Position numbers and translations under genes: made by a program. The notes under the pieces were generated by a model, which saw nothing but the letters and a program-made list of their open reading frames with translations, was not told the DNA's origin and did no database searches. This document shows positions 1 through 64,000 of a stretch of DNA of 64,000 nucleotides, in pieces (position 1 is the stretch's first letter; every line of letters starts with the position of its first letter). This DNA comes from an uncultured Acidobacteriota bacterium (GTDB lineage Bacteria; Acidobacteriota; Thermoanaerobaculia; Multivoradales; UBA5704). The stretch lies in NCBI GenBank assembly GCA_963700145.1, contig OY969474.1:4644916-4708915 (forward strand), written 5' to 3'.

Positions 1-1
1 G

Positions 2-429: not shown

Positions 430-1196
430 GCCGCGCCACCCCCTGGCTCGCCTACCGGGAGATCGACCCGCGGGCGCGCCTCCGCCTCTTCTGCTTCCCC
501 TATGCCGGCGGCGGGGCCTCGGCCTACCGCGCCTGGGGCGCGGCGCTCCCCGCCGGCATCGAGGTCTGCCCCGTCCAGCTCCCCGGCCGCGAGGGCCGGC
601 TGCGAGAGGCGCCGTTCACGCGGATGGAGCCGCTGGTCGAGGCGCTCGCCGGCGCGCTGCCGCTCGCCGACCTCCCCTTCGCCTTCTTCGGCCACAGCCT
701 CGGGGCGCTCATCGCCTACGAGCTGGCGCGCGCCCTCCGCCGCCGCGGCGGCCCCGAGCCGCTCGCCCTCCTCCTCTCCGGTCGCCGCGGCCCGCGCGTG
801 CCGCCGCGCGAGGAGCCGATCCACGCGCTGCCGGAGGCGGAGTTCATGGCCCGCCTGCGCGAGCTCAACGGCACGCCGGAGGAGGTGCTCGAGCACGGCG
901 AGCTGATGGCGCTGCTCCTGCCTCTCCTGCGCGCCGACTTCGCCCTGCACGAGACCTGGGAGCTCCGGCCGGAGGAGCCGCTCGGGATCGGCATCTCCGC
1001 CTTCGGCGGCCTCGCCGACCCCGAGGTCACCCGCGAGGACCTGGAGGACTGGCGCGGCGAGACGCGCGGCCGCTTCCGCCTCCGCATGCTGCCCGGCGAC
1101 CACTTCTTCCTCCACTCGGAGCGGGCGCTGCTCATCGAGGCGGTGGCGCGCGACCTCTTCGAGCTGGCGCCGCTGCCCGCCGCGGCGCCCCCTTGA
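426..1196 (+). CDS. Type II thioesterase (nonribosomal-peptide/polyketide editing thioesterase, alpha/beta hydrolase)
   Basis: Carries the [17 protein letters not shown] and GHSLGA(LIAYELA) nucleophile-elbow motifs typical of GrsT/SrfAD-type TEII, and the C-terminal PGDHFF motif. The start is uncertain: there is no ATG or GTG between the mbtH stop and the conserved N-terminus (CTG at 426 or non-canonical). Confidence 0.8.
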
Positions 1197-1942
1197 CCGC
1201 CTTCGCGCCGCGCGCCGCCGGCGCGCCGCTCGAGCTGCCGCCGGGCGAGGTCCACGTCTGGGCGGCGCGCCTCGACCCGCCGCCCGAGCGGGTGGCGGCG
1301 CTGCGCTCGACCCTCGCCGCCGACGAGCGGGCGCGCGCCGACCGCTTCCGCTTCGAGGTCCACCGCCGCCGCTTCGCCGTCGGCCGCGGCCTGCTGCGCG
1401 AGCTGCTCGGCGCCTACCTGGGCGCCTCCCCCGAGCGGCTCGCCTTCGTCTACGGCGAGCGCGGCAAGCCCGACCTCGCCCCCGCCACCGCGCGCCCCGG
1501 CGCGCCGCTCCACTTCAACCTCTCCCACTCGCACGAGCTGGCGGTCCTGGCGGTGACCCGCGAGCGCGAGATCGGTGCCGACGTCGAGCAGCTCAAGCCG
1601 ATGGACGACCTCGAGCGGATCGCCGAGCGCTTCTTCTCGGCGCCGGAGAACGCGGCGCTGCGCGGGCTGCCGGCGGCGGAGCGGCAGCGCGCCTTCTTCC
1701 GCTGCTGGACGCGGAAGGAGGCGTATCTCAAGGCCGTGGGGGTCGGGCTGGCGGCGCCGCTCGACTCGTTCGTGGTGACGCTGGGGCCGGAGGAGCCGCC
1801 GCGGATGCTGTCGCTCGAAGAGGACGCGGCGCGCGGCGAGCGCTGGAACCTCTGGCACCTCGAGCCGGAGGAGGGCTACTTCGGGGCGGTGGCGGTCGAG
1901 GCGGCGGGGCTCGTGCTCCGCGCCTGGAAGATGGTGACCTGA
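1193..1942 (+). CDS. Sfp-type 4'-phosphopantetheinyl transferase
   Basis: Motifs FNLSHSHELAVLA, GADVE and KEAYLKAVGVG are characteristic of Sfp/EntD-family PPTases. The TTG start overlaps the TEII stop. Confidence 0.85.
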   Translation: MTAFAPRAAGAPLELPPGEVHVWAARLDPPPERVAALRSTLAADERARADRFRFEVHRRRFAVGRGLLRELLGAYLGASPERLAFVYGERGKPDLAPATARPGAPLHFNLSHSHELAVLAVTREREIGADVEQLKPMDDLERIAERFFSAPENAALRGLPAAERQRAFFRCWTRKEAYLKAVGVGLAAPLDSFVVTLGPEEPPRMLSLEEDAARGERWNLWHLEPEEGYFGAVAVEAAGLVLRAWKMVT

Positions 1943-3771: not shown

Positions 3772-3955
3772 CCATCCGGGAGCGCGTGCCACCGCACGCG
3801 CGAGAGCGACGGAGTCAGCGGCAGACCATAGCAGATCGCCCGCAGACGCCCGGCACGTAGGCCGGGCGCTACGTAGCGGCGGGCCTACGTGCCCGCCGTG
3901 TTCGCGGCGGGCGCCTGCTGGCGCTCCGCCGCGGCTTTGGGGGAGACTCCGCGCC

Positions 3956-5125
3956 GTGATCGCCCTTGGCAGCGAGCGGGAGCTGGAGCGCGAGGCGCCC
4001 TCGCTGTGGGCGGCGCTCTCGCCGCTCGGGCGGCGGCTGGCGGGCGGTGAGGCCGAGGCGGGGGCGGAGGGCGGAGCGTCCACGGGCGCGCCGGCGCTCG
4101 GCCTGCCGGAGCTGCGCCGGCGCTGGCGCGGCTGGCAGCGGCGGGAGGGGCCGGCGGCGTCGTCCACGCTGCCAGCCACGACGGTCGGGCTCTCGCACGC
4201 CCTGTCGCTGGTCGCGGACCTCTTCGCCGGGCCGGGGCGCGCGGTGGCGGTGCCGCAGCCCTTCTGGGGCAACTACCGGCAGTGCTTCGAGATGCGCAAC
4301 GGCGCGCGCCTTCTGACCGCGCCGGCCTACCGCGGCGGCCGCTTCAACCCGCACGCCTGGAGCGAGGCCCTCGCCGAGGTGCCGGCGGGGGAGCCGGCGG
4401 TGGCGATCGTCAACCTCCCCTCGAACCCCGGCGGCTACTCGCCGGCGCCGGCGGAGCGCCAGGTCATGCTCGACGCGCTGGTCGCGGAGGCCGGCCGGCG
4501 GCCGCTCCTCGTGCTCTGCGACGACGCCTACGCCGGCCTGGTCTTCGAGCCGGGCATCCCGGCGGCGTCCCCGTTCTGGGACTTGGCGGGCGCCCATCCC
4601 AACCTCGTGGCGGTCAAGGTGGACGGCGCGACCAAGGAGTTCTCCTTCTTCGGCGGCCGGGTGGGGTTCCTCACCTTCGCGCTGGAGCCGGACGGGGAGG
4701 CGGCGCGGGCGCTGGAGGCGATGGGCGGGCGGCTGGCCGCAGCGACGATGGGCGCGCCGGCCGCGGCGCCGCAGGAGGTCCTGCTCGCCGCCCTGCGCCA
4801 AGAGGGGATCGAGCGCGAGATCGAGACGGTCCGCGCCCTCCTCGCCGGCCGCTACCGCGCCCTCCGCGACGCCCTCGCCGCCGCCGACCCGGCCCTGCTC
4901 CATGCCCTGCCCTTCAACTCCGGCTGCTTCGCCCTCGTCGAGCTACCCGGGGGTCTGAAGACCGACGTCCACGCCGTCCGCCGCCACCTCCTCGACCACT
5001 GGGACACCGGCGTCATCTCCCTGGAACCCCGCTACCTCCGGATCGCCCACTGCTCGGTGGACGAAGCGGCACTGCCGGAGCTGGTACGGCGGCTGGAAGG
5101 GGGAGTAGGGGAGCTCGTCGGGTAA
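3956..5125 (+). CDS. PLP-dependent aminotransferase (class I/II fold)
   Basis: SNPGGYSP (NPxGxx) motif, LVLCDDAYAGLVFE and KEFSFFGGRVGF (Lys-containing) regions typical of fold-type I aminotransferases. GTG start at 3956 is chosen because upstream sequence overlaps the convergent peptidase gene. Confidence 0.6.
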   Translation: MIALGSERELEREAPSLWAALSPLGRRLAGGEAEAGAEGGASTGAPALGLPELRRRWRGWQRREGPAASSTLPATTVGLSHALSLVADLFAGPGRAVAVPQPFWGNYRQCFEMRNGARLLTAPAYRGGRFNPHAWSEALAEVPAGEPAVAIVNLPSNPGGYSPAPAERQVMLDALVAEAGRRPLLVLCDDAYAGLVFEPGIPAASPFWDLAGAHPNLVAVKVDGATKEFSFFGGRVGFLTFALEPDGEAARALEAMGGRLAAATMGAPAAAPQEVLLAALRQEGIEREIETVRALLAGRYRALRDALAAADPALLHALPFNSGCFALVELPGGLKTDVHAVRRHLLDHWDTGVISLEPRYLRIAHCSVDEAALPELVRRLEGGVGELVG

Positions 5126-5574: not shown

Positions 5575-6939
5575 GGATGTGTCCCGATTCTTGTGGAGAT
5601 TCGGCGTAACCCCCTGACTGTCGGGTTGACGTTAGCTCCTCACGCGGCCTGCGTCCAAATCGTGGCGAGGAAACGTTGCAGGTCTTGGTGGCCATTGACG
5701 CTGCGTAGGCGGATCTGGCCGCAGGCCACCAGTGCCCAGAGCAGGGTCAAGGCCGCCTCTTCGGTGGCGAAGCTGGCCTGGGTCTTGGTGCGGCGTCGAA
5801 ACTCGCGATGGAGGTTTTCCAGCGCGTTGGTCGAGCGTAGGGTCCTCCACAGCGAGCGGGGAAACTCGTAGAAGGTCAACAGCTCCTCTCCGGCCTCCTC
5901 GAGCGAGCGGGCGACAGCCGGACACAGGCGAGACCACTTGGCGAGGAAGGCCGCGTAGGCCTGATGGGCCGCCCCACCGTCGCGGGCCTCGACGATCGGG
6001 CGCCAGTCGCGCCGGAGCTCGCCGCGAGCATGGCGCGGGCAGTGCTCCAGCAGGTTTCGGAGCTTGTGCTGGGTGCAACGCTGCACGCGCACCCCCGGCC
6101 ACGCCGCCAGCGCCTTGCGCAAGCCAGCGTGGCCGTCGACGATGAGCAACTCGGGCGCCGCCAAGCCCCGCCGCTGCAGATCCTCGAGCAGCTCGCCCCA
6201 CAGCCGCGCCGCCTCGCTCGTGGCCAACCGTAACGCCACCAGGACCTTGCCGCCATCGGGGCGCACGCCCAGAGCGGCCAGCACCGGCACCGCCACCACC
6301 CGCCGGGCCAGCCGCACCTTGACGTGGAACCCGTCGAGAAACAGCAGCGCGTAACGCTCGCCCGCACAATCGCGCTCCCGCCAGGCCGCAAACCGCTCTT
6401 TGAGCCGCCCCACCACGCGCGAGGCCGCGCTCTTGGACAGGTGCTCTTCTCCCAGCAGCGGCGCCAGCGCCTTGCCGATCCGTCGGCTATTGGCCCCCGC
6501 CAGATAGCACGACAGGATCGCCGCGTCGATCTCCCGCACCCGCCGCGCGTAGCGCGGCACCAACGCGCTGGCGAACTCTTCCGTCGTGCCCTCCACTGTG
6601 GCCACCCGACCGCGCGGCACCCGCAGCGGCCGGGTCCCCGCCACCGTCGTCACCCGCCGTAGCGTGGCTCCGTTGCGGTAGCCGCGGCGCACCGCCGTCC
6701 GCTCGTAGGGCTGCGCACCCAGCGCCTCCTGAAGCTCCTGCTCTAGCACCAGCTCCACGGCCTCCAGAAGCCTCTGCTCGAGCAGCCGCCGGATGTCCTG
6801 GCGCAGCGGCACCACCTCCTGCTCTGACGTGCTAGCCTCCCACATGGCGTAACCCTCCTCCGCCGCCCACGCGACGGGATGTGCTTGACAGCTAGGAGGT
6901 TACGCCACTTTCTTTTTCCACAAGAATCGGGACGGATCC
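5575..6939 (-). mobile_element. IS256-family insertion sequence (about 1365 bp) with imperfect terminal inverted repeats and an 8-bp target-site duplication
   Basis: Terminal inverted repeats GGATGTGTCCCGATTCTTGTGG (left) and GGATCCGTCCCGATTCTTGTGG (right, reverse complement) match 20 of 22. Direct repeat CCTCCCGG at 5567-5574 and 6940-6947. IS256 characteristically makes 8-bp target duplications. Confidence 0.85.
5640..6845 (-). CDS. IS256-family (Mutator-like) transposase
   Basis: LFLDGFHVKVR and TNALENLHREFRRRTK motifs are IS256-family transposase signatures. About 400 aa. Confidence 0.9.
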   Translation of the reverse strand: MWEASTSEQEVVPLRQDIRRLLEQRLLEAVELVLEQELQEALGAQPYERTAVRRGYRNGATLRRVTTVAGTRPLRVPRGRVATVEGTTEEFASALVPRYARRVREIDAAILSCYLAGANSRRIGKALAPLLGEEHLSKSAASRVVGRLKERFAAWRERDCAGERYALLFLDGFHVKVRLARRVVAVPVLAALGVRPDGGKVLVALRLATSEAARLWGELLEDLQRRGLAAPELLIVDGHAGLRKALAAWPGVRVQRCTQHKLRNLLEHCPRHARGELRRDWRPIVEARDGGAAHQAYAAFLAKWSRLCPAVARSLEEAGEELLTFYEFPRSLWRTLRSTNALENLHREFRRRTKTQASFATEEAALTLLWALVACGQIRLRSVNGHQDLQRFLATIWTQAA

Positions 6940-22979: not shown

Positions 22980-23571
22980 CCTCGCCCGCGCCGCGCTGCT
23001 GGCCGCCCTCGTCGCCGCGGGCGCCTGCGCCGGCGGCACGACGCCGCGCACGATCGAAGACCTCACCAACCCCTACCTCGGGCCCGAGCACTCGCAGTGG
23101 CTGATCGGCGCCGTGTCGCGCCTCGCCAGCCCCGAGGAGGTCCAGGGGTACCTGGCGCTGCGCGACGGCGCCGCGGCGGAGGCCTTCATCCGCGACTTCT
23201 GGACGCGGCGCGACGCGACCCCCGCCGCCCCGGGCAACCCGCTGCGCGAGACCTTCGAGGCCCGCTCCGCCGACGCCGACCGCCTCTACAGCGAGGCCGG
23301 CGTGGTCGGGCGGCGGACGGCGCGCGGCACCGTCCACATCCTCTACGGGCGGCCGTCCAACATCGACTTCGAGGTGTCGCCGAGCCCCGGCGAGGGGCCG
23401 ATCGAGCTCTGGCTCTACGCCGAGGGGAGCCCGGCCGGGCTCGACGCGCGCACCCCGGCGCGCTTCTACCGCTTCATCCGCCGCGGCGACCTGACCGTCC
23501 CCTACACGCCGCGCGAGCGGGACCCGCGCTTCCCGCGTGACGCGACGCGGCCGCCGTCGCCGCCGCGCTGA
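22945..23571 (+). CDS. GWxTD-domain-like lipoprotein
   Basis: Lipobox LVAAGAC. Region EARSADADRLY...GRRTARGTVHILYGRPSNIDFE resembles the GWxTD domain (GWxTDRG, YILYGxPD). Confidence 0.5.
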   Translation: MKSSSICCAGRSLARAALLAALVAAGACAGGTTPRTIEDLTNPYLGPEHSQWLIGAVSRLASPEEVQGYLALRDGAAAEAFIRDFWTRRDATPAAPGNPLRETFEARSADADRLYSEAGVVGRRTARGTVHILYGRPSNIDFEVSPSPGEGPIELWLYAEGSPAGLDARTPARFYRFIRRGDLTVPYTPRERDPRFPRDATRPPSPPR

Positions 23572-23599
23572 GCCCGGCGCGAGGAGCCACCGGCCGATC

Positions 23600-24670
23600 A
23601 TGAGCGAGCTGCGCGCGCTGCTGGCCGGGACCGGCGTCGCCGTGCCGCCGCGGCAGGTGGACAACCACATGCTGGCGCGGATCCTCGACACCAACGACGC
23701 GTGGATCCGCGAGCGCAGCGGCGTCGTCACCCGCCACTACGTCGAGCCCGGCATCGCCTCCTCGGACCTGGGGACGGAGGCGGCGCGCGCCGCCCTCGCC
23801 GACGCCGGGGTCGCGCCGGAGGAGCTCGACTACATCGTCTGCGCCACCGCGACCCCCGACCACTACCTGCCGGGGATCGGCACGATGGTGCAGCAGAAGC
23901 TCGGGATCGGCGCCGTGCCGTCGCTCGACATCCGCCAGCAGTGCGCCGGTTTCGCCTACGGCCTGCAGGTGGTGGACGCCCTGGTGCGCAGCGGCATCGC
24001 GAAGACCGTGCTCCTCGTCGGGGTGGACATCCACACCTCGCTCATGCCCTTCTCCAAGCGCACCTGGGAGGTGCTCTACGACCCCGCCGCCGGGCCGCTC
24101 GAGGAGGCGGAGCGCGAGTGGAACACCCGCTACCGCTACATCGTGGTGCTCTTCGGCGACGCCGCCGGCGCGATGGTCTTCCGCGCCGGGCGCGAGGACG
24201 GGCGCGGCATCCTGCGCTCCGCCCTCTGGGGCGACGGCAACCACAAGGAGATCCTCTACACCCCCGGCGGCGGCTCGGTCTTCCGCCCCTGGGTGGACCA
24301 CGAGCAGATCGCGCGCGGCGACCTGGTGCCGGTGATGGACGGCCGGCAGGTCTTCCGCCTGGCGGTGACGCGCATGCCCGAGGCGGTGCGCCAGCTCCTG
24401 GCGCAGGAGGGGGCGGCGGTCGAGGACCTCGACCTGGTGGTGATGCACCAGGCCAACCTGCGGATCAACGAAGCGGCGCAGAAGGCGCTCGGTCTGCCCG
24501 ACGAGAAGGTCTGGAACAACATCCAGCGCTACGGCAACACCACCTCCGCCACCATCCCCCTCGCCTTCCACGAGGCGCGCCAGGCCGGCAAGGCCCCGGA
24601 AGGCGCCCTCGTCGCCTTCGCCGCCCTGGGCGCCGGCCTCCACTGGGGGGCGGTGCTGATGCGGGCGTAG
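23600..24670 (+). CDS. fabH: 3-oxoacyl-ACP synthase III (FabH-like KAS III)
   Basis: Active-site Cys region DIRQQCAGFAYGL, HQANLRI, and YGNTTSATIPLA motifs. Confidence 0.85.
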   Translation: MSELRALLAGTGVAVPPRQVDNHMLARILDTNDAWIRERSGVVTRHYVEPGIASSDLGTEAARAALADAGVAPEELDYIVCATATPDHYLPGIGTMVQQKLGIGAVPSLDIRQQCAGFAYGLQVVDALVRSGIAKTVLLVGVDIHTSLMPFSKRTWEVLYDPAAGPLEEAEREWNTRYRYIVVLFGDAAGAMVFRAGREDGRGILRSALWGDGNHKEILYTPGGGSVFRPWVDHEQIARGDLVPVMDGRQVFRLAVTRMPEAVRQLLAQEGAAVEDLDLVVMHQANLRINEAAQKALGLPDEKVWNNIQRYGNTTSATIPLAFHEARQAGKAPEGALVAFAALGAGLHWGAVLMRA

Positions 24671-24744: not shown

Positions 24745-24990
24745 GGAGTACGAAAAGCCGGTATCAGAGCTTGATACCTCGGTATCGAGCCCTGATACCT
24801 CCGTATCAGCCGCCGCTACCCAGGTATCAGGCGCCGCTACCTAGGTATCAGGCGCTGCGACCTAGGTATCGGGCGCCGATACCTCCGTATCAGGCGCCGC
24901 TCCCCCTGTGTCGAGCGCTGATACTCAGGTATCACGGGCCGATACCCCCGTATGGAGCGCTCATACCTCCGTATCGACGCTCCCGACCTC
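24745..24990. repeat. Tandem array of about 11 units with a period of about 21 bp (consensus GGTATCAGGCGCCGCTACCTA)
   Basis: Direct visual periodicity. Each unit carries GTATC/GATAC half-sites. The overlapping ORF gives a heptad-like PRYQAPL repeat and is not called as coding. Confidence 0.8.
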
Positions 24991-25275
24991 TTCCTCCACC
25001 TACGTCCCCCGACTCGCGGAACACCAGCCGCTGGGGTTGCCGGGGCTGCCACCATCCCCCTCGCCTTCCACGAGGCGCGCCAGGCCGGCAAGGCGCCGGA
25101 AGGCGCCCTCGTCGCCTTCGCCGCCTTGGGCGCCAGGCGGATCTTCTTGAGCGACTCGGTGCTGTGCCCGGCGAAGAACGGCCCGAGCTGCGGGTCGGCC
25201 GCCATCCGCCCGATGAAGTCGTCGGTCACGGCGGCGAACGCGTACAATCGGGAAACGGGATCGTGAGGTGACGCC

Positions 25276-25891: not shown

Positions 25892-26335
25892 CTACTGCTC
25901 GACGATGTCGGCGCGCAGGGTGCCGACGGCGGCGAAGAGCTCCTCGCGCTCCTTCTGCCCGACCTTGAACTTGTCGAGCGTCGCCGTCAGGTGCTTGACC
26001 GCGGTGTCCCAGTGGGCCGCCGAGATCTTCATCCCCGCGTGCGACGCCTTCATGCTCCGCCCCGTGTAGTAGCAGGGGCCGCCGCTCATCTCGCAGAGCT
26101 GCTCGACGACGAGCTGCCGGATCTTCTTGAGCGACTCGGTGCTGTGCCCAGCGAAGAACGGCCCGAGCTGCGGGTCCGCCGCCATCCGTCCGATGAAGTC
26201 GTCGGTCACGGCGGCGATGGCGTCGTAGCCGCCCAGGCGCTTGTAGAGCGACGCGTCGTCAGCCGCGGCGAGCGGCGCCGCGAGGGCGGCCGAGAGCAGC
26301 AATGCGGCGGCGATGAGAGCCTTGGTTCGGATCAT
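25892..26335 (-). CDS. Truncated (2/2) hemoglobin, group I, with signal peptide
   Basis: YKRLGGYDAIAAVTDDFIGRMAADPQLGPFF and the HAGMKIS heme-pocket region match trHbN. N-terminal signal peptide. Confidence 0.8.
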   Translation of the reverse strand: MIRTKALIAAALLLSAALAAPLAAADDASLYKRLGGYDAIAAVTDDFIGRMAADPQLGPFFAGHSTESLKKIRQLVVEQLCEMSGGPCYYTGRSMKASHAGMKISAAHWDTAVKHLTATLDKFKVGQKEREELFAAVGTLRADIVEQ

Positions 26336-26431
26336 GGTTCCCTCCCGAGAGAGCTCGACTGCAGTCCATTGGCTTCTACGCGCGGGCCGAGCGCCCGGAT
26401 GAGTCCGAGTAGCGGCCGAACCGACTCCGAA

Positions 26432-26705
26432 TCAGTCGACGTTGAACACCGGACGTTCGCAGGTTGGACCGGCCTGTAGCTCGCTCTGCGTGTATCGGCT
26501 GTCTTGGTACAGCCGAATGGGATAGCAGCCTGTACCGAGACCGAACTCGACGACGTAGTCGCCTGGAAGCAGGCTGGTCCGAAGAACGCCGCGTTCCTTC
26601 TGGACGAGGCTCCCTCCATCGTCACCAAGCCAGATGTCCACCGATTTGGAGTTGCCGGTGATCTCGAGCTCGAGGTACGTGCGGCTCTCGTAGACGTGGC
26701 TCATT
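26432..26705 (-). CDS. Small hypothetical protein (island gene 4)
   Basis: ORF beginning MSHVYESRTYLELEITG. Low-G+C island. No domain recognised. Confidence 0.35.
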
Positions 26706-26875
26706 GTGCCGACCGTAGGAGAGAGTGAACTATCTAAGCGTGGGCATGGTAGCACCGTGACCGCGACCCTCTGCCTCCGACGCGATGCTGGCCTGTCACT
26801 GCCGGCTCCGTGCCGCCCTAACGTTCACGCTTCACCGGCGGATGGCAACGCCAGCCGTCCGGCGGAAGCTGGGGG

Positions 26876-27778
26876 TTAAACGGCACCGCTTCTGGCCTCG
26901 AGTTCACGTCTCACCTCGCTACGGAACACCGGCAACCATTCAGTAATGAGCTGTTGGAAAGCCTCGTCTAGCTGGGGCTCTCGCTCAGGAACTATCGAGT
27001 TCATCCGAATCGCCAGTGCCAAACCTGCTATGTTGGCTGCCGCCTTGGCGACTGGTTCTGATGCGAAGAGGTGAATCTCCTGGTTGAGCTCACTCACGCG
27101 CCGACCCTGCAGCTGGAGATCTTCTTCTACGCGAGGGAGCATGAGCTGAGCAGCCGGTCCACCCTGCTTCATAACGATGACGCGATTCTTCGCTGCTTGG
27201 TGGGCTCTTAGAGCGGCATTGACAAAGTCGGCATAGACCTTCTGGTGGGTCACTCCGGCCATATCGATCGAAGGACTGACTGGAGCTAACGGCGTAGTGC
27301 CTAAAGGCGGTGCTTGAGCGAGAACTCCGCGAAGTGCGCTAAGAAGTTGCCGATAGTTCTCCTCCGAGTATGGATCACCGCGCAGGTCAAAGTAGACCTT
27401 TCCTCGAAGAAATGAGGGAGCCGCCTCTCTCCAGTCACCTGACCGAAGTAGAGGAACGAACTTCCTGTCGTTGCGGTCAGTCATCACTTCGGCCGTAATG
27501 ATATGCCCTTCGTAACCGACGCCACCGATGCGTCGATCTGACTTCTCTTGGTACTTAGGGGTGCAGATCATGAGGACGAAGTCGCTGTCTCGGATGGCAG
27601 TTTCAATAAACTGAGGCAGTTGATCACCGGGAGCAACCTTCCACTCGTCCAAGATCAGGTCGATGCCGTCACTGCGGAGACGGGCACCAAGTCTCTTGAC
27701 CCAATCCTTGTGCTCCTCGCTATCCCACGAGTACGAGATGAACGCCGTGGGTATCTGTTTAAGAAGTTCGCTTGTCAC
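26876..27778 (-). CDS. TIR-domain protein (N-terminal TIR plus a C-terminal domain of about 160 aa with unknown function)
   Basis: AFISYSWDSEEHKDWVKRLGARLRSDGIDLILDEWKVAPGDQLPQFIETAIRDSDFVLMICTPKYQEKS matches the bacterial TIR pattern (FISYS, D, L, G, D, PG, I, AI, S, S, Y). G+C visibly low. Confidence 0.65.
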   Translation of the reverse strand: MTSELLKQIPTAFISYSWDSEEHKDWVKRLGARLRSDGIDLILDEWKVAPGDQLPQFIETAIRDSDFVLMICTPKYQEKSDRRIGGVGYEGHIITAEVMTDRNDRKFVPLLRSGDWREAAPSFLRGKVYFDLRGDPYSEENYRQLLSALRGVLAQAPPLGTTPLAPVSPSIDMAGVTHQKVYADFVNAALRAHQAAKNRVIVMKQGGPAAQLMLPRVEEDLQLQGRRVSELNQEIHLFASEPVAKAAANIAGLALAIRMNSIVPEREPQLDEAFQQLITEWLPVFRSEVRRELEARSGAV

Positions 27779-27861
27779 GGTCGATTCTTGTGCCGTTTAA
27801 CGGCGTATGAGTTCCGCTGCAACGAGGTTAGGTGACCCGCCGCGACTGTCGAGCAAAGGGT

Positions 27862-28347
27862 TCAGGTCGTTCGCTGGTAGTCGTCCAGCAGCTGAGTGAT
27901 GTCTCGCTGTGTGACGGTGAGATGATGAAGCAGGGAGTCGACTGGCGAAGGGCTGACGTGACTGCTTGAGCCAGTGGCGATGTGTGTGTGCAGGTAGTCG
28001 AGTTTAGCGTTGATGTGGTCAAGCTGGTAGCGCTGCCAGTCGAACCTGTCGAACAGACCCTCGTCGGCGAACAGTTCGCGACCGCTAAGCAGGACTTGTG
28101 CTGGGGTTGTCGTATCTAGGCGGAAGTTTGGAATCACAACCGGGGAACGCTGCAGGTAGTCGAGGCATTGCGCAATGCGATCGAGATTGAAGCGAAACGC
28201 CTTGAGGAGATTGGCGCGGAGCTGATGAGCTCGCGCTACGCGCTCCCGTTTCCATTGCTGCCGTGCCCAGAGCACGCCGAACACTGTTCCAGCGAAGGCG
28301 CTTAGGAAGGCGAAGAGGAGATTCCAGAGCAGCTGTTCCGTTGTCAT
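27862..28347 (-). CDS. Single-pass membrane protein (island gene 2)
   Basis: MTTEQLLWNLLFAFLSAFAGTVFGVLWARQQW is an N-terminal transmembrane helix, followed by a helical soluble region. An alternative start at 28407 is possible. Confidence 0.45.
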   Translation of the reverse strand: MTTEQLLWNLLFAFLSAFAGTVFGVLWARQQWKRERVARAHQLRANLLKAFRFNLDRIAQCLDYLQRSPVVIPNFRLDTTTPAQVLLSGRELFADEGLFDRFDWQRYQLDHINAKLDYLHTHIATGSSSHVSPSPVDSLLHHLTVTQRDITQLLDDYQRTT

Positions 28348-28431
28348 GAATGCTATCCGGGTCCTAACGCTACTGGGCTTCAGCGACGGCGGAGCCGCTC
28401 GCTGCAAGCCCTTGGTTAGGCTGCTGATTGA

Positions 28432-28935
28432 TCACCGAGCCTTTCCAAGCGTGCTTAACGCAACGATGGCTTCCCTAATGTTGGCGGCGACAATATTAGA
28501 TTGATCGAGGCGCCACCTGTTGTAGTGTGCACGAAGGACATCGACGAGCCTGGCTGCCTGCTGAATATCGCGCTGTGCTGGACCGAGATCGACCTCGTCA
28601 GGGATGCCTAGGCTCCTCATGAAGCCGATGACTCGCTCAAGATGAGCGACCAGTTGGCGGTGAGGACGTGTGAGTCGACCTTCTCGGAATTGCTTTGCCT
28701 TGTCCGTGTCCTCGAACCATGTTGGGTCCCACATCAAGGAGTCATTCGCAATCTTGGTCACATGAGCCACCACGGGCTCACCAATGAGCGAGTCGAATTC
28801 ACGATCATTGCGCTCCATGACCTCGCGATATGTCCGGACAATCTCCTGAAGGCCGGAGAGCGAAGTGAGGGACTGCATGTCCTGTGTGAGTACCAACGGG
28901 GATAGGAAGGCAGGTCGCGATGCATTATCTGTCAT
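28432..28935 (-). CDS. Hypothetical protein (island gene 1)
   Basis: 167-aa ORF in the low-G+C island. AT-rich putative promoter upstream (28940-29100). Confidence 0.4.
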   Translation of the reverse strand: MTDNASRPAFLSPLVLTQDMQSLTSLSGLQEIVRTYREVMERNDREFDSLIGEPVVAHVTKIANDSLMWDPTWFEDTDKAKQFREGRLTRPHRQLVAHLERVIGFMRSLGIPDEVDLGPAQRDIQQAARLVDVLRAHYNRWRLDQSNIVAANIREAIVALSTLGKAR

Positions 28936-29147
28936 GGCATTTCATCCTTGTTCTAGAATACTGAATCCTGCTCGCATGGTCAGCAGCCTAACCTCTGCTT
29001 ATACGGATTGGCCGGCTGTGGGTGGCGAGACGGGAGCCTCAGCCGCATCTCACGCCTGGTTATGAGTTAGGAGAGTGTAGCAGAGACTGCGTGCGAACAG
29101 GTGCGACGGACGTGTCGTCTATGCGGCGCTGGACGGGGTCAGAGTTT

Positions 29148-51716: not shown

Positions 51717-51824
51717 ATGCCCGAACCCGCTCGCCGCGCGGCGCAACCCGCTGATTCCGGGCGGCGCCCGCGCTTGACGGCGTTTGCGCACTGGCGTAGA
51801 GAAGCGCGCGCAAACCACCGTCCG

Positions 51825-54800
51825 ATGAGCGTCCACGCGCCCGCCGTCGAGCTGCGGCACCCGTCGCTGGTGCCGGCGCCGGGCGCACTGTCGCTCGCCG
51901 ACGCCCGCCTCACCGACCGCGAGCGGCTGGCGCTCCTCCTCCAGGGGGCGGCCCTCCTCGCGCACCTCCGGCACGCCGGCTGGGCGTTGCACGATGGTTG
52001 GCGCAGCGCCGCGGTCGCTCCGGCCGGCCGGCTCGTCGTCGCCGGCGCCGGTCCCGGCAAGTCGCGGCGCCTGCCGCAGGAGCTGCTGCGCGAGCTGCTG
52101 GCGTCGCTCTTTGGAGCGGGCGAGTCGATCGCCGGCCGCGGCGAGGCGCGGCGTGCCGCCCGCGTCCTGCTCGAGCCCTGGCGGCAGGGGCTCGTGCCGC
52201 TCGCGCCCGACGCGGCGGTGGGGCAGGTGCTGGAGGCGGCGCCCTTCCTCTGGGGTGCGCCGTTCGGCGAGGCCCGGCTGGCGCTCGCCGCCGAGCACGC
52301 GCTGAACGGCACGGTTCAGCTTTGGCTCGCCGGGCCGGCGCGCTTCCGCCGCGCCCTCCTCGCCGGCGGGCCCGACCGCGCGGCGCTGGCGGCGCTCCTC
52401 GGGTCGCCGGACGCGCGCGCCGCCTGGGAGGCGGCGGATGGGCGCGAGCCCGCCGCCCTCGCTCGCGCCGGCCGCTCGCGCGCCGCCCTCGCCGCTTGGC
52501 GGGGACGCCCGCCCCGGTCGGCAGAGGAGCGCGGCCTCCGCCTCCGCTGCCAGGCGCGGCTCGGCCGGCTGGGCGCGGCGCGGGCCGCGCTCCGCCGCCT
52601 GGAGGACGCCCCGCTCGGGCCGGACGAGCTCGTGGACCTCGCCGAGATCGCGTCGCGCGTCCTCGCCAACAGCGCCGAGCCGGAGCGCGCGGCGCGCTGG
52701 GTGGAGCGGGCGCTCGCCGCCGGACGGGAGGCCGGGCCGCCGCTCGCGCAGCGCGCCGAGCTGGTGGCCGCCGAGGCGGCCTGGGACCGGCGGGACGCCG
52801 CGGCGATGGACCGCCACCTGGAGGCGGCACGCGCGGCGCTCGACGAGCCGGCCCTCGCCTGGCGCTGGCACCACGTCGCGGCGCTGCGGGCATTCCGGCA
52901 GCCGGCGGGCGGGCCCGCCGCCGTCGCGCACCTGACGCGCGCCTTCGCCGCGCGGCGGCGGCTCTCGCCCCACGAGGCGGCCGGCCTCTGGAACGACCTC
53001 GGGCTGGCGCGCGCGCAGGCCGGCGACCTCGCCGGCACCGAGCGGGCCTTCCGCCACGCAGCGCGCCTCCTGGCCGGCGGCGACGGCCCGCGGCAGACGA
53101 CGCTGGCGCTCTACAACCTGGCGGAGGTCCGGGTGCGGCGCGGGCGGCTCGCCGGTGTGCGCGAGGTGCTGGAGCGCTCGACGGCGGCGAACCGCCTCGC
53201 CGGCAACCTGCGCGGCCTCACCCACGACATTGAGCTCTGGGTGCGCCTCGAGCTGGCGCAGGGGCGGCCGGCTGCGGCGCTCGCCCTGTGCCGCGGGCAG
53301 CTCGCCGAGCTGGACCGCCAGGGCTCGGACTGGCGGCGCGCCGAGCTGCGGGTGCTGGCGGCGCGCGCCCTCGGCTGGCTCGGCCGGGCCGACGAGGCCG
53401 CGGCCGAGTTGGCGGAGACCACCGCCGAGGCCCGCGCCGAGCTCGAGCCGGAGGAGCGGCCGGCGCTCTGGGCGCACGCCGGCCGGCGCGAGGAGGCGCT
53501 GCGCGAGGCGGCGGGGAGCCCGCTCGCGCCGCTCTGGCAGGCGCTGCTCGAAGGGCGGGCCGTGCCGGCGCCGGAATGGGACGCGCTCGGCGCCCTCGAG
53601 CCCTTCCGCGCCGCGCGGCTGGTCTTCGACGCCGAGCTGCTCCTCCCCGGCTGCGCGCCGCCGCACTGGGTGCGGCGCGCCGTGGCGGCGCTGCGCGAGG
53701 TGGGCGCCGGCCTGCCGGCCGAGCGGCTGGAGCGGCGGCACCCCGAGCCCTGGCGCGCGCTCGCCACGTACTTGGAAGCGCGCGACGGCGAGCGTGCCGA
53801 GATCGGCGCGTCCTGGCCGCGCCTCCTCGCCGAGGCCGGGCATCCGGAGGCCGAGCTGTGCTGGACGCGCGACGGCGATGACGACAGCGACGGCGAGAAG
53901 AGCGTGCTGGCGGCCGGCGCCGGTGGAGCGGAGGCGCTCTCGGCCGAGGCCGGCGGCGGCCGGCTCACCTTGCGCGCGCCGGCGGTCGACGAGGTGCTGG
54001 CGGCGCTCTTCGCCCTCGCCCGCCGCGAGCTGGACGGCGACGGCCGCCGCCATGCCGCGGGCCGCACTCCGCCCGCGGCTTCCCACCTCGCCGCCGGCCG
54101 CGGCGGCATCGCCGGCCGCAGCCCCGCGCTGCTCGCCGCGGTGGCGCGCCTGGAGAAGCTGGCCGCCACGCCGCTCGCGGTCCTGGTGCAGGGGGAGAGC
54201 GGCACCGGCAAGGAGCTGGCGGCGCGGCTCGTCCACCGCCTCTCGCCGCGCGCCCGCGCGCCCTTCGTCGCGGTCAACTGCGCCGCCCTCTCCGAGGCCC
54301 TCCTCCTCTCCGACCTCTTCGGCCACGTGCGCGGCTCCTTCACCGGCGCCGACCGCGACCGCGCCGGCGTCTTCGAGACGGCGCAGGGCGGCACCGTCTT
54401 CCTCGACGAGATCGGCGACCTGCCGCCGGCGGCACAGGGGATGCTGTTGCGCGTGCTCCAGGAGGGGGAGGTGCGGCGCGTCGGCGAGAGCTTGGCGCGC
54501 AAGGTGGACGTCCGGGTGGTGGCGGCCACCCATCGCGACCTCGCGGCGCGGGTGCGCGACGGCAGCTTCCGCGAGGACCTCTTCTACCGCCTGAAGGTGG
54601 CGAGCGTCGAGCTGCCGCCGCTGCGCGCGCGCGGCGACGACGTGCTGCTCCTCGCCGAGCACTTCCTCGCCAAGCAGGCGGCGCCGGACCCGGCGCCGGC
54701 CCTCTCGCCGGCGGCGCGGAGCGCGCTCCGGGCGCACCGCTGGCCGGGCAACGTGCGCGAGCTGGGCAACGTCCTGGCGGTGGCCGCGGCGCTGGCCGGC

Positions 54801-55037
54801 GGCGGGCCGATCCTCCCCGAGCACCTGGAGCTGCCGGCGGCGGCGGGGGCGAGCGACGGGAGCGGCGCGACGGCGGATGGACCGTCCGACTACCACCGCC
54901 GGGTGGACGCCTTCCGCCGCAAGCTGGTGGAGGACGCGCTGGCGGAGGAGGGCGGCAACCGCGCCGCGGCGGCGCGGCGGCTGGGGCTCTCGCGGCAGGC
55001 GCTGTCGTATCTGGCCCGGCAGCTCGGGCTTGTCTAG
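51825..55037 (+). CDS. Sigma-54-dependent transcriptional activator with a long N-terminal TPR-like sensory region
   Basis: C-terminal AAA+ sigma-54 interaction domain ([27 protein letters not shown]-variant, [11 protein letters not shown]) and Fis-type HTH. ATG at 51717 is an alternative start. Confidence 0.8.
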
Positions 55038-59674: not shown

Positions 59675-59790
59675 CCAGATCCTTCGCTGCGCTCAGGATG
59701 ACGAGGAAGGGTTCATGCCGGGCACAACCCAACGACGTCATCCTGAGCGCAGCGTAGCGCAGCGAAGGATCTGGGGGCGGGCAGGCTCAT
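59672..59790. repeat. REP-like palindromic repeat, full dyad copy, spanning the thiL-lon intergenic region
   Basis: CAGATCCTTCGCTGCGCTCAGGATGACG ... CGTCATCCTGAGCGCAGCGTAGCGCAGCGAAGGATCTGGGGGCGGGC. Confidence 0.75.
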
Positions 59791-62240
59791 GCAGGGACTT
59801 CCACCGGTTCCTTTTCCGGCGCCGGCGCCTCCGCGGACGGGCCCTCCGCCGCGGGCCTCGTCCCTGGCGCGTCGAGGGTCGGCCGCGGCATCGGCAGCAG
59901 CGCCAGGTCCAGCACCTCGTCCATGTGCTCGACGAAGTGGAAGCTGAGCCCCTGCTTGACCTGCTGCGAGACCTCGTCGAGGTCGCGCCGGTTGAGCTTG
60001 GGGAGGGCCACGCGGGCGACGCCGGCGAGCTTGGCGGCGAGGACCTTCTCCTTGAGCCCGCCGATCGGCAGCACGTCGCCGCGCAGGGTGAGCTCGCCGG
60101 TCATCGCCAGGCGGCGGTCGACCGGGCGCTGCGTCAGCACCGAGAGGATCGCGGCGCCGATGGTGATCCCCGCCGACGGCCCGTCCTTGGGGATCGAGCC
60201 GGCCGGCACGTGGACGTGGATGTCGTGGCGGGCGAAGTAGTCGTCGGCGATGCCGTTGGCGCCGCCCCAGGCGCGGGCGTAGGAGAGCGCCGCCTGCGCC
60301 GACTCCTTCATCACTTCGCCGAGCTGGCCGGTGAGGAGGAGCAGCCCCTTCCCCGGCACCGCCACCACCTCGATGAACAGCAGATCGCCGCCGACGGCGG
60401 TCCAGGCGAGGCCGGTTGCCACGCCCACCCGGTCGCGGTCCAGGAGCTCCTCGGAGTAGTGCTTGCGGGCGCCGAGCAGCTCCTCGACCTTCGCCGCGTC
60501 CACGACGACCTGCTCGGTCTCGCCGCGCGCCACCCGGACCGCCACCTTGCGGCAGATCGCCGCCAGCTCGCGCTCCAGGTTCCGCAGCCCCGCCTCCTTG
60601 GTGTAGTCGGAGATGACCTTGCGGGTGCCCTCCTCGGTGAACAGCACCTGCTCCTCGCTGATGCCGTTCTCGCGCGTCTGCTTGGGGATCAGGTGGCGGC
60701 GGGCGATCTCGAGCTTCTCCTCCTCGGTGTAGCCGGAGAGGCGGAGCACCTCCATGCGGTCGAGGAAGGCGGGCTGGATCGGCTCGAGCAGGTTGGCGGT
60801 GGCGATGAAGAGCACCCGCGAGAGGTCGTAGGGGACGCCGAGGTAGTGGTCGACGAAGGTGTTGTTCTGCTCCGGGTCGAGCACCTCGAGCAGGGCCGAC
60901 GAGGGGTCGCCGCGGAAGTCGGCGCCGATCTTGTCGATCTCGTCGAGGACGAAGACCGGGTTGCTGGTGCCGGCCTGGCGGATGCCCTGGAGGATGCGCC
61001 CGGGCAGGGCGCCGACGTAGGTGCGGCGGTGGCCGCGGACCTCGGCCTCGTCGCGCACCCCGCCCAACGAGATGCGCACGAACTGCCGGCCGAGCGAGCG
61101 GGCGATCGAGCGCCCGAGCGAGGTCTTGCCGACGCCCGGCGGCCCGACGAAGCAGAGGATCGGCCCCTTGGTGTCCTGCTTGAGCTTGCGCACCGCCAAG
61201 TACTCGAGGATGCGCTCCTTGATCTTCTCGAGGTCGTAGTGGTCCTCGTCGAGCACCTGCTGCGCGCGGTCGAGGTCGAGGTCGTCCTGCGAGACGGTGC
61301 CCCAGGGCATCGCGGTCAGCCAGTCGAGGTAGGTGCGGATGATCTGCGTCTCGGCGCTCTCCGGGTGGCTGCGCTCGAGGCGCTTGATCTGTCGCTCCAG
61401 CTCCTCGCGGGCCTCGTCGGTCAGCCCCTTCTCGTCGGCCAGCTTGCGGTAGTTGGCGATCTCTTCCGACAGCTCCTCGCCTTCGCCCAGCTCCTGCTGG
61501 ATCGCCTTGAGCTGCTGGCGCAGGAAGTACTCGCGCTGCGAGCGGTCCATCTCGCCGCGCGCCTGCGAGGAGATCTCCTGCTGCATGGTGAGCACCTGGA
61601 TCTCGCGCACCAGGAGGTCGGACACCTTGCGCAGCCGCTCGACGGGGTCCATCGTCTCGAGGATCGCCTGCGCCTCGGGGAGCTTGAGGTCGAGGTTGCT
61701 GGCCGCGAGGTCGGCGAGGCGGCCGGGGTCCTCGAGGTTGGCGGCGATGACCATGACCTCGGCCGAGATCGCCTTGCCCAGCCCCACCGCGCGCTCCAGG
61801 CTCTCCTTGACGCTGCGCACCAGCGCCTCGGCCTCGAGCCCGCTCTCGGACGGCGCCGGCTCCTCCAGCCGCTCGATCTTGGCCTGCAGGTACGGCTCGA
61901 CCTGGCTGATGTGCTCGATGCGCGCCCGGGCGACCCCCTGGACCAGGATGCGGATGCGGCCGTCCGGGAGCTTCAACATGCGCAGGATGACCGCCGCGGT
62001 GCCGAACGGGTAGAGGTCGGCCTCGCCGGGGTTCTCGACCGCGGAGTCGCGCTGCGCCACCAGCATGATGACCCGGTTCTCGGCGAGCGCGCGGTCCACC
62101 GCCACGACGCTCTTGTCGCGCCCCACCGAGAGCGGCAGGATGATGTAGGGGAAGACGACCGTGTCTTTGAGCGGCAGGACCGGCAGGACGTCGGGGACCT
62201 TGACGCTCTCCTCCTGCGGCTCCCCCGGCGGCTTGCTCAT
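59787..62240 (-). CDS. lon: ATP-dependent Lon protease (LonA)
   Basis: N-terminal LON domain, Walker [10 protein letters not shown], and protease catalytic Ser in DGPSAGIT. Start [11 protein letters not shown] at 62240. The track ORF is overextended. Confidence 0.9.
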
Positions 62241-62728
62241 CGTTCCTCGGTCTCCGGATTGTCGGGCGGATTGTCGGCGGGTACGGGCTCCTCGACATGC
62301 AAGAGGCGAGCCTCTTGGCGCTTCTCCTGCACCTTCGGAAACGTCACGATCAGAAGGCCCGCTTCCAGCCGCGCGCTGCCCTGGTGGCTGTTGACCGGCC
62401 AAAACAGCTGCACCTCGCGCCGAAAGCGACCGTGCCCGCGCTCCATGCACTGGAAGCGGACGCGCTGGCTGGTGGGGAGCGCCGTCGTCTTGGTGCCGGA
62501 GACGACGACGAGCGTGCCCCGCACCTCGACCTTGAGGTCGGCGGCGCCGAGCCCCGGCACGTCGAGGAGGAGCTGGATCTCGTCCGGCGTCTCGACGACG
62601 TCGAGGTCCGGCTGCCACTCGCCGGCGGCGAGCGTCCCGGCGCCTAGCTGGAGGGCCTCGTGGAAGAGGCGGTCGAGCTCGGACTGGAAGCGCGAGATCA
62701 GGTGGAGCGAGGGGTAACGGCCGGCCAC
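62237..62728 (-). CDS. Hsp20/alpha-crystallin family small heat-shock protein
   Basis: Alpha-crystallin domain (PDLDVVETPDEIQLLLDVPG...LKVEVRGTLVVVSG). Its stop overlaps the lon start. Confidence 0.8.
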   Translation of the reverse strand: MAGRYPSLHLISRFQSELDRLFHEALQLGAGTLAAGEWQPDLDVVETPDEIQLLLDVPGLGAADLKVEVRGTLVVVSGTKTTALPTSQRVRFQCMERGHGRFRREVQLFWPVNSHQGSARLEAGLLIVTFPKVQEKRQEARLLHVEEPVPADNPPDNPETEER

Positions 62729-62729
62729 C

Positions 62730-63212
62730 CTAGCCCTCCTCGCGGGTGGGGACCTCTTCGCGCGGCTGCACCAGGCCGCGCAGCACGTCCATGAAGGCGT
62801 CGATGTCCTCGAAGCGGCGGTAGACCGAGGCGAAGCGCACGTAGGCCACCTGGTCGAGCTCGCGCAGCCGCTCCATGACGAAGGAGCCGATGTCGCGGGT
62901 CGAGATCTCCCGGTCCTCGCGCTCGTGGAGCATGTTCTCGGCCTCTTCCACGATCTCCTCCAGCCGCCGCTGCGCCACCGGCCGCTTCTCGCAGGCCTTG
63001 AGCAGCCCCGACATCAGCTTCTTCCTGCTGAACTCCTCGCGGCTGCCGTCGTGCTTGACCACAAGATACGGGATGTCTTCGATCTGCTCGTACGAGGTGA
63101 AGCGGCGGCCGCAGGAGAGGCACTCGCGCCGCCGGCGGATGGTGACCCCGTCGCGGCTCTCCCGGGAGTCCACCACCCGGTCCCGGTTCTCGGAGCAGAA
63201 GGGGCACCGCAT
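62730..63212 (-). CDS. nrdR: Transcriptional repressor NrdR
   Basis: MRCPFCS...C..C zinc ribbon and ATP-cone domain. Confidence 0.9.
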   Translation of the reverse strand: MRCPFCSENRDRVVDSRESRDGVTIRRRRECLSCGRRFTSYEQIEDIPYLVVKHDGSREEFSRKKLMSGLLKACEKRPVAQRRLEEIVEEAENMLHEREDREISTRDIGSFVMERLRELDQVAYVRFASVYRRFEDIDAFMDVLRGLVQPREEVPTREEG

Positions 63213-63239
63213 GGGCGCCGGCCAGCATAGCAGCGTCCG

Positions 63240-63650
63240 CGGGGAAGCCGGCCCGGAGCGTTTTGGTGCATCCGCGCGGCCTCGGATGCACGGGAAGACG
63301 GCTGGACCAAGCGCCCCGGAGACGTTTATGCACCATTTTTCGCCGCCGATGCACCACCGGGAGTGCTTGGACGGCCTCCCCCGCGCCTCGGGAGCCCGTC
63401 CAGGCCCCTCCAGCGCCCTCCCTCAAGGCAAAATGGTGCAAAGAAGGCGAAAAATGGTGCACCCCGGCCGCGGCGGCGACCGCCCCCGCGCCGGGGGTGC
63501 ACCACCACGGCGTTTTCTGGTGCATTTCGGCCGCCCGGACGCTTGCTCACGGCGCCGTACCGCTTGATCCAGCACCGCGGGCGGTCGTTCCGGCCAGCCG
63601 ATGGTGCATCCGACGCGTCGGATGGTGCATCGAAGTCCCCGGGGGCGCTT
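63240..63650. promoter_or_regulatory. Cluster of ten TGGTGCA/TGCACCA heptamers, in five pairs with about 21-bp centre-to-centre spacing, upstream of nrdR
   Basis: Examples: GGTGCATCCG-N10-CGGATGCAC; ATGCACCA-N13-ATGCACCA; ATGGTGCA-N13-ATGGTGCA; GGTGCACCA-N13-TGGTGCA; ATGGTGCATCCGACGCGTCGGATGGTGCAT. A/T tracts lie between the paired sites. Confidence 0.5.
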
Positions 63651-63682
63651 GAGGGCGGGTTCGGGGAGAACGACCGAAGCGA

Positions 63683-63946
63683 TCAGCGGAGAGGCTGGAG
63701 CGCGAGCAGATGCTCGACCTCGACTCCGTCGTCCAGTTCCTCCCAGTAGACGGCGAAGCCCCCCGGCTCGAGCGACCACCCTTCCCGCTGGTCGGGAGAC
63801 GCCCGCAGCAGCCATGCGAGCCAGGAGACCCCGGCGAGCGGCACGCCGATGTCCCGGCCGTCCGTGAGCAGCACGTGGAGCACGTCGCCCTCGAAGCGCA
63901 CGCCGGTCGCCCCAACGGTGATTTCCCTACCGGGTGAAGTGATCAT
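63683..63946 (-). CDS. DUF2442-family small protein
   Basis: VRFEGDVLHVLLTDGRDIGVPLA...W...ASPDQREGWSLEPGGFAVYWEELDDGVEVEHLL resembles DUF2442. Confidence 0.5.
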   Translation of the reverse strand: MITSPGREITVGATGVRFEGDVLHVLLTDGRDIGVPLAGVSWLAWLLRASPDQREGWSLEPGGFAVYWEELDDGVEVEHLLALQPLR

Positions 63947-64000
63947 TCCAAGCCTCCAACAACGCCGACTGATGCCACTGCGTCAACTTCACGACCCGGT

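Follow-up and report, generated by a model that had tools for sequence, protein, structure and literature searches.

The stretch of DNA analyzed here (64 kb; hereafter, the window) comes from a MAG of the Thermoanaerobaculia (Acidobacteriota) with a GC content of ~72%. Toward its right end lies an array of short repeated boxes upstream of nrdR, surrounded by the following features:

59787 to 62240, minus strand: lon, encoding an ATP-dependent protease; overlaps the end of hsp20
62237 to 62728, minus strand: hsp20; abuts nrdR
62730 to 63212, minus strand: nrdR (zinc ribbon and ATP-cone), the first gene downstream of the array
63222 to 63234, minus strand: GCTGCTATGCTGG, positions −22 to −10 of nrdR; native, outside the inserted module
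63250 to 63650, no strand assigned: ten-box module of ~380 bp, 18 units of 21 bp with a box in 10 of the 18
63683 to 63946, minus strand: DUF2442 gene, upstream of the array and part of a variable inserted islet

Since the three genes abut or overlap, nrdR-hsp20-lon is a probable operon. The DUF2442 gene, which the original prediction took to be divergent, in fact lies upstream of nrdR in the same orientation and is followed by the remnant of a DUF4160 gene that reaches the window end. The intergenic region, first estimated at ~410 bp, spans positions 63213 to 63682 (470 bp).

Several other parts of the window stand out. Positions 26400 to 29000 have a low GC content (60 to 63% versus ~72%) and encode a TIR-like protein (26876 to 27778, minus strand, FISYSWDSEEHKDWV) and two unknown proteins; this is probably a small acquired defense islet. 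Positions 24840 to 25270 contain a chimeric scar in which duplicated pieces of a FabH-like gene (23537 to 24670; 3′ end) and of a globin-like gene (25892 to 26335; internal part) lie side by side. Between 52000 and 54000, the GC content rises to 0.82 within a long open reading frame (51717 to 55037, plus strand) that overlaps an even longer antisense one and has an unusual composition.

The heptamer TGGTGCA occurs 19 times on both strands of the 64-kb window, compared to 2.87 ± 1.8 times in dinucleotide shuffles, and none of 100 shuffles reached 19. The motif is therefore not randomly frequent in the window. Nine exact copies are located within positions 63264 to 63629; the tenth site is imperfect. 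Starting from the site nearest to nrdR, the boxes are as follows:

Box 1, 63264 to 63270, plus strand: TGGTGCA; its center is at −55 from the nrdR ATG
Box 2, 63287 to 63293, minus strand: CCGTGCA, imperfect
Box 3, 63329 to 63335, minus strand: TGGTGCA (AAAATGGTGCATAAA)
Box 4, 63350 to 63356, minus strand: TGGTGCA
Box 5, 63434 to 63440, plus strand: TGGTGCA; ATGGTGCAAAG is invariant across all array types
Box 6, 63455 to 63461, plus strand: TGGTGCA (GGTGCACC, palindromic)
Box 7, 63498 to 63504, minus strand: TGGTGCA (GGTGCACC, palindromic)
Box 8, 63518 to 63524, plus strand: TGGTGCA
Box 9, 63602 to 63608, plus strand: ATGGTGCAT
Box 10, 63623 to 63629, plus strand: ATGGTGCAT, the distal box; its center is at −414 from the nrdR ATG

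The claim of ten copies of ATGGTGCA(T) thus holds for the number of sites and overstates their identity: the full 9-mer ATGGTGCAT is present at only three sites and one box is imperfect. The arrangement into five pairs with ~21-bp spacing is, on the other hand, tighter than had been claimed. With heptamer centers at 63267, 63290, 63332, 63353, 63437, 63458, 63501, 63521, 63605, and 63626, consecutive steps are 23, 42, 21, 84, 21, 43, 20, 84, and 21 bp. Nine boxes are at most 1 bp, and one box 2 bp, off a 21-bp lattice that extends over 359 bp, and the five pairs are themselves phased, with pair-to-pair steps of 63, 105, 63, and 105 bp. Pairs of GGTGCA 19 to 23 bp apart were not found outside the array in the 64-kb window, and an additional 88 kb from related loci (~150 kb in total) likewise had none except within such arrays. 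The GC content of the array is 69%, and runs of A/T lie beside several boxes (e.g., AAAATGGTGCA, three times).

Scans for sigma-70 promoters and terminators in the window array and in one array of the vapB type described below returned nothing useful, with no sigma-70–like promoter within either, and an Rfam scan of positions 62600 to 64000 returned only subthreshold chance matches. We also considered that the array could be a coding sequence, with TGG-TGC read as Trp-Cys in frame and 21 bp as seven codons, and rejected this because the window and L002 arrays share no common open reading frame, and conservation is limited to the boxes.

To place the array in an evolutionary context, 80 species-level relatives were retrieved via NrdR. 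A GGTGCA cluster was present in two of them (L001, with a 100% identical NrdR, and L002, with 99% identity) and missing in the other 78. In most of the other relatives, nrdR lies ~15 to 110 bp behind a gene for an Arf/MglA-like GTPase. Strains whose NrdR is identical to that of the window fall into two kinds. At empty sites (L084, L085, and L087), the GTPase stop codon is followed by 64 bp and then nrdR. At filled sites (the window, L081, L082, L083, which is the same as L001, L086, and L088), an insertion extends from the GTPase stop codon to ~23 bp before the nrdR ATG. The insertions carry variable toxin-antitoxin–like pairs, either DUF4160 and DUF2442 or a 66–amino acid protein with ParE-like and DUF2442 proteins, and some of them also a STAND gene (TIR+AAA_16+TPR in L081, another TPR protein in L083). 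Every filled site contains the array, which always abuts nrdR. The gap between the GTPase gene and nrdR is an insertion hot spot (L081, positions 1 to 4000; L083, 1 to 3850; L002, 1 to 1310; empty in L084, L085, and L087), and the window array belongs to a variable toxin-antitoxin/defense islet inserted there. The array is not a feature of nrdR that relatives conserve, as some strains lack it even though their NrdR is identical.

The final 22 bp before nrdR, which include GCTGCTATGCTGG, are native and common to filled and empty sites; the right-hand insertion junction lies just upstream of GCTGCTATGCTGG, and blastn alignments of the window with L002/L116 pick up again at −23. The GCTGCTATGCTGG element is conserved in filled strains, in empty-site strains, and in L003, and contains no Shine-Dalgarno sequence. 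It is a candidate −10 element (TATGCT) of nrdR's own promoter, from which a nearly leaderless nrdR mRNA might be produced. In 60 further Thermoanaerobaculia loci, the sequence before nrdR contained no other repeated motif, apart from a simple 9-bp tandem repeat (ATGGCGCAG, five copies) immediately before nrdR in one MAG (L021, positions 5895 to 5945); this repeat is unrelated to the array.

Comparison of the window with L002/L116 shows that the array is a discrete, exchangeable module of ~380 bp. The flanks are 96% identical over nrdR-hsp20-lon (3.1 kb) and 90% identical over the DUF2442 gene, while the 450 bp between them have no blastn similarity and an ungapped identity of ~42 to 47%. Despite the dissimilar sequence, the ten boxes of the L002 array form five pairs with the same 63/105 steps.

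To locate further copies, metagenomes were scanned with the invariant box 5/6 pattern. Three of the 48 matches are true copies: L116, an L002-like nrdR locus, and L104 and L114, which have no nrdR nearby. The other 45 arose by chance in coding sequences that have nothing to do with the array (GC content, 29 to 73%), including a GTGCA-rich coding group. No arrays were detected in 2.9 million viral contigs, which gave seven chance matches.

The L104 array is flanked on one side by the 3′ end of a Sortilin/BNR-type gene and on the other by vapB, which has a clear PF09957 match and is followed by vapC, encoding a PIN-domain protein. Ten homologues of the L104 VapB were looked up, and nine of them (all but P0004) could be placed on contigs. 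At each of these loci, vapB-vapC is directly preceded by the array, or by the part of it that lies on the contig. The vapBC loci in which the array follows the Sortilin/BNR stop codon are L104/L145, L144, L146, L147, L150, L151, L157, L148, L152/L153, L154/L155, and L156. Full ten-box arrays are present in L144, L146, L147, L150, and L151; those of L157, L152/L153, L154/L155, and L156 are partial owing to contig ends; and L148, whose VapB is 71% identical, has eight boxes. Relative to the vapB ATG, the register of boxes 1 to 4 is constant for VapBs that are 71 to 100% identical, and steps between hexamer centers in vapB-type arrays are exactly 21, 84, 21, 42, 21, 84, 21, 42, and 21 bp. Box 1 of the window type is flipped about the TGCA core relative to box 1 of vapB-type arrays, and its register is kept.

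A third context is seen in L114, a translocated copy that retains traces of where the Sortilin gene ended and where vapB began (ATGCCC, then a stop). Its ten boxes have all stayed intact although the flanking vapB is destroyed, and for this reason box retention in L114 fits any trans-acting factor and not VapB specifically.

While the array immediately precedes an antitoxin-toxin operon at all 11 vapBC loci examined, the gene directly downstream of the window copy is nrdR. Since, in addition, no VapB-encoding gene is present in the 64-kb window, the window copy is an orphan member of the vapBC-type array family. MAG assembly DASWHY01 holds both L002, with its nrdR-linked array, and L144, with a vapBC-linked one, and the metagenome that contains the window-like L081 also holds the vapBC-linked array of L147. 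Therefore, lineages with an nrdR-linked array also carry a vapBC-linked one.

Some further features of these arrays deserve mention. A palindrome with an AT-rich core, GATATATC, separates box 3 from box 2 in arrays of the vapB and L002 types (L144, ~4920 to 4940; L150, ~2920 to 2940; L154, ~140 to 160; L152, ~445 to 465; L002, ~1185 to 1205) and is absent from the window-type array. Its arms show compensatory changes (GAGGAT/ATCCTC, GAAGAT/ATCTTC, GGAGAT/ATCTCC, and GGGGA/TCCCC), and it could be a hairpin or a −10–like element. CGCGG recurs at exact 21-bp intervals in the 84-bp gaps of vapB-type arrays, in phase with the boxes (L150, 2810 to 2890; L152, 270 to 335; L104, 655 to 725), and the vapB-type array looks like 18 tandem 21-bp units, ten of which retain a box. 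Upstream of the His9-type vapB of L152 (positions 80 to 520), the array is apparently longer, with at least 13 boxes and an extra pair-pair unit, although the count is uncertain because of a run of N inside it.

Three sequence types of the array, 47 to 56% identical to each other, can be aligned over 384 columns, only 2 of which contain gaps. Across the three types, 50 of 60 box columns are invariant, compared to 64 of 324 other columns (Fisher p = 3e-21). Within vapB-type arrays, none of the 60 box columns varies versus 128 of 323 others (p = 2e-12); within the window-type nrdR-linked arrays of four strains, the respective values are 2 of 60 and 61 of 326 (p = 0.002). The latter difference demonstrates that the boxes of the orphan nrdR-linked copy are under purifying selection. 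The spacers between boxes have diverged to ~45 to 55% identity almost without indels. The lack of indels despite near-random spacers indicates that the spacing, i.e., the helical phase, is under selection as well. The evidence is comparative throughout, and the array-bearing organisms are uncultured MAGs.

The original prediction named no binding factor; the position of the array upstream of vapBC now makes VapB a concrete candidate. VapB matches PF09957, a ribbon-helix-helix (RHH) antitoxin family, and is named an Arc/MetJ-family regulator by JGI. Its structure model consists of an N-terminal ribbon followed by helices at residues 12 to 22 and 27 to 41, and its closest solved relative is Mycobacterium tuberculosis VapBC11, a hetero-octamer whose two RHH modules are ~60 Å apart, as in the FitAB-DNA complex (PMC6265470). 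In VapBC hetero-octamers, two VapB dimers occupy operator half-sites and are held together by VapC dimers (PMC3378870; PMC3384007), and type II antitoxins typically autoregulate from an operator just upstream of their own operon (PMC3378870). RHH dimers, as exemplified by the omega protein, bind asymmetric 7-bp repeats that are direct or inverted (PMC9499535). Reading of either orientation by RHH dimers would explain why the orientation of the boxes varies while their positions do not. Paired boxes are 21 bp apart center to center, and ~60 Å corresponds to ~18 bp of straight B-DNA, so the pair spacing needs some flexibility or bending. By analogy with the solved complexes, 21-bp pairs would be compatible with the modules of a VapB4C4 octamer given modest bending or linker flexibility.

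The sequence of the boxes also appears to follow that of the VapB ribbon. At five nonredundant loci encoding VapBs with the ribbon RRANIYV, GGTGCA is found at all four proximal boxes; at four loci with the ribbon R(T/S)N(I/V)H(V/L), GGTGTA is found at two to three of them. Covariation of the Tyr9/His9 ribbon residue, which is expected to face the DNA, with GGTGCA/GGTGTA is suggestive, though it may reflect one or two evolutionary events. There is a countercase: the nrdR-linked array of L002 has two GGTGTA boxes, and the known VapB of that MAG is of the Tyr type. The DUF2442 and DUF4160 proteins were considered as box binders and rejected, as vapB-linked arrays have no such neighbor and STAND genes can separate the DUF2442 gene from the array.

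Our preferred interpretation, which we consider somewhat better than even, is that the window region is an orphan copy of the ten-box operator array of one VapBC subfamily of Thermoanaerobaculia, with VapB or VapBC as the putative binder. One VapB RHH dimer would occupy each box (core GGTGCA, extended ATGGTGCAT), and one VapB4C4 hetero-octamer would clamp two boxes 21 bp, or two helical turns, apart, its VapC (PIN) dimers bridging the VapB dimers. Because the pairs are 63 and 105 bp (6 and 10 turns) apart, the five octamers would be placed on one face of the helix. At the home locus, the array directly before vapB would serve autoregulation of vapBC. In the window, the array would have been brought in with the variable toxin-antitoxin/defense islet and now abuts the native nrdR-hsp20-lon promoter region, where it would have to act in trans since no vapBC adjoins it and the 64 kb contain no VapB gene. 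There, it might place the operon under VapBC-dependent control (repression or activation), block read-through from the islet into nrdR, or act as a reservoir of VapBC sites that buffers free VapBC.

Lon is among the kinds of protease by which such antitoxins are destroyed. In Salmonella, VapB is degraded by Lon (PMC3378870), which makes a feedback loop between VapBC and lon attractive as a hypothesis. Box-bound VapBC would repress or roadblock nrdR-hsp20-lon, a drop in VapB would derepress lon, and faster degradation of VapB would follow, yielding bistable positive feedback; the orphan array would thereby link the Lon protease to a toxin-antitoxin circuit. At the same time, the 380-bp array with its five octamers would be a portable cassette copied before other operons. 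We regard this extended scheme as speculative and rather doubtful.

The main competitor to VapB is another sequence-specific protein encoded elsewhere, either a lineage-specific global regulator or a wrapping nucleoid-associated protein, for which vapBC and nrdR-hsp20-lon would be just two targets. Such a protein would account for the retention of all boxes without an intact adjacent vapB (window type, L002/L116, and L114), the 168-bp superperiod and same-face phasing would suit a wrapping oligomer, and the size of the array is atypical for a toxin-antitoxin operator. However, every traced copy outside the nrdR site is, or derives from, a vapBC upstream region (as the L114 remnants attest), the ~150 kb sampled from these genomes contain no box pairs elsewhere, the box sequence covaries with the VapB ribbon, and in type II systems the antitoxin as a rule autoregulates from exactly such a position (PMC3378870). 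We therefore judge a separate regulator to be unlikely, if the most serious of the alternatives. Alternatively, the boxes could pair with one another in a folded RNA leader or intercistronic region or in single-stranded DNA, a-type boxes (TGCACC) joining b-type boxes (GGTGCA) as 1-10, 2-9, 3-6, 4-5, and 7-8. The orientation string aaaabbabbb is indeed a balanced nesting (a ~4% chance), RNAalifold gives exactly this nesting for both strands, the single-stranded DNA fold has a z of −4.8 versus shuffles, and the small palindrome of the other array types carries compensatory arm changes. Yet the covariation term is unfavorable (+10.8 and +8.7 kcal/mol), many nonbox pairs are broken in two of five sequences, and the paired segments are invariant rather than covarying. 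Nor is there an RNA rationale for the strict lack of indels and the 21-bp lattice across loops; box 1 is flipped in the window type with the array still conserved, and no Rfam match was obtained. A functional fold is thus quite improbable.

Mobile or selfish DNA would have explained the presence of the array in at least three genomic contexts, its presence/absence polymorphism, and its toxin-antitoxin neighbors. The array could be MITE-like, with subterminal transposase sites (boxes 1 to 4 on the left and 5 to 10 on the right, in opposite orientation), or it could represent iterons or the centromere of an integrated replicon. A spacing of 21 to 22 bp is typical of iterons and transposon-end sites. 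On the other side, none of the loci contains a transposase, rep, or par gene, defined terminal repeats and target duplications are absent, only 6 to 9 bp are conserved per 21-bp unit, unlike in iterons, and the 2.9 million viral contigs contained no array, with only three true copies in the metagenome scan. The copies carry remnants of genes flanking the vapBC locus, which points to segmental copying and not transposition. We give this origin very little credence. Of the three functions put forward by the original prediction (iterons, a parS-like centromere, and a multisite operator for a cooperative repressor), only the operator is retained, as the same array is found upstream of vapBC with the boxes as its sole conserved columns, while no rep, par, or partition gene lies by any copy. 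Last, the position upstream of nrdR could suggest NrdR boxes serving nrdR autoregulation, or NtrC-type enhancer half-sites (TGCACC-N5-GGTGCA) driving a sigma-54 promoter; the box hexamers are identical to NtrC half-sites, as at E. coli glnAp2. The NrdR box is a 16-bp palindrome that is usually duplicated before nrd genes, with about three helical turns between the copies. The best match of the array to its consensus, acaCwAtATaTwGtgt, is 9/16 and the spacing is 21 bp, so the statement that these are not NrdR boxes stands; strains with an identical NrdR lack the array, too. Only isolated halves of the NtrC dyad are present, with no dyad scoring above a single half-site (9/12), no −24/−12 match (TGGCAC-N5-TTGC) scores at least 9/11, and the same array occurs at vapBC loci unlinked to nrdR. 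Either assignment is hardly credible. Site-specific recombination, in the form of a shufflon, res site, or integron attC, was considered separately and set aside, as there is no recombinase and the motifs do not match.

Returning to a VapBC operator array, its conservation across species, with spacers randomized without indels, would make it a clean natural test bed for toxin-bridged, ratio-dependent cooperativity. The selected orphan copy directly upstream of nrdR-hsp20-lon suggests a direct transcriptional link between a toxin-antitoxin system and its controlling protease, which has long been debated. It would also mean that a regulatory cassette can travel with toxin-antitoxin/defense islets and be grafted onto core operons.

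Known repeat systems resemble the array to different degrees. Like plasmid iterons and the R1 parC centromere with its two five-repeat sets, it has a period of ~21 to 22 bp or phased repeats and ten sites, but the units of those systems are conserved over 11 to 22 bp, are all direct within a set, and lie beside rep or parMR, none of which applies to the array. An iteron-type origin has tandem direct repeats of 17 to 22 bp that are conserved throughout, beside a rep gene, an AT-rich unwinding element, and DnaA boxes; with 6 to 9 bp conserved per unit, mixed orientation, 69% GC, and no rep gene in any context, the array does not behave as one. Centromeres (parS) of type Ib or II partition systems lie next to parA or parM and a gene for a centromere-binding protein; the neighbors of the array are nrdR, DUF2442, STAND genes, a Sortilin-like gene, and vapBC. 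MITE or REP elements have precise termini, target-site duplications, and many dispersed copies; the array is known from three contexts, and its copies have flank remnants rather than clean ends. Operators of the ccdAB type are similar in that many antitoxin sites are bound by chains of alternating toxin and antitoxin; they differ in being ~110 to 120 bp long, with closely packed sites and different protein families. The omega protein (ParB_pSM19035) is an RHH repressor that binds one dimer per asymmetric 7-bp repeat, in mixed orientations (e.g., seven repeats), acts cooperatively on multiple repeats, and uses one array type at several promoters (PMC9499535). Omega heptads are, however, contiguous with a 7-bp period, and at least four contiguous repeats are needed, whereas the boxes described here are paired at 21 bp with 42- and 84-bp gaps and have no ParA partner beside them.

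The closest likeness is to VapB4C4-bound VapBC/FitAB operators (Neisseria gonorrhoeae FitAB-IR36; vapO1/vapO2 of Salmonella enterica and Shigella flexneri; M. tuberculosis VapBC11). These, too, are positioned directly upstream of vapB, are recognized by an RHH antitoxin, and consist of two short boxes with about two helical turns between them, a spacing that would suit two DNA-binding modules set apart by the VapC core (~60 Å in VapBC11); there can be more than one octamer site per promoter, and in Salmonella VapB is a Lon substrate (PMC3378870; PMC3384007; PMC6265470). The differences are of scale and context. Characterized VapBC operators have two sites and are far smaller than ten boxes in ~380 bp (PMC3378870; PMC3384007). 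VapBC/FitAB operators comprise one or two sites that overlap the −10/−35 elements, while the array comprises five paired sites on an exact 21-bp lattice over ~380 bp, with direct plus inverted boxes, no recognized promoter, and orphan copies that are under selection away from vapBC. Compared to the one or two sites of characterized VapBC operators, ten boxes on an exact lattice would represent a new scale of toxin-antitoxin operator.
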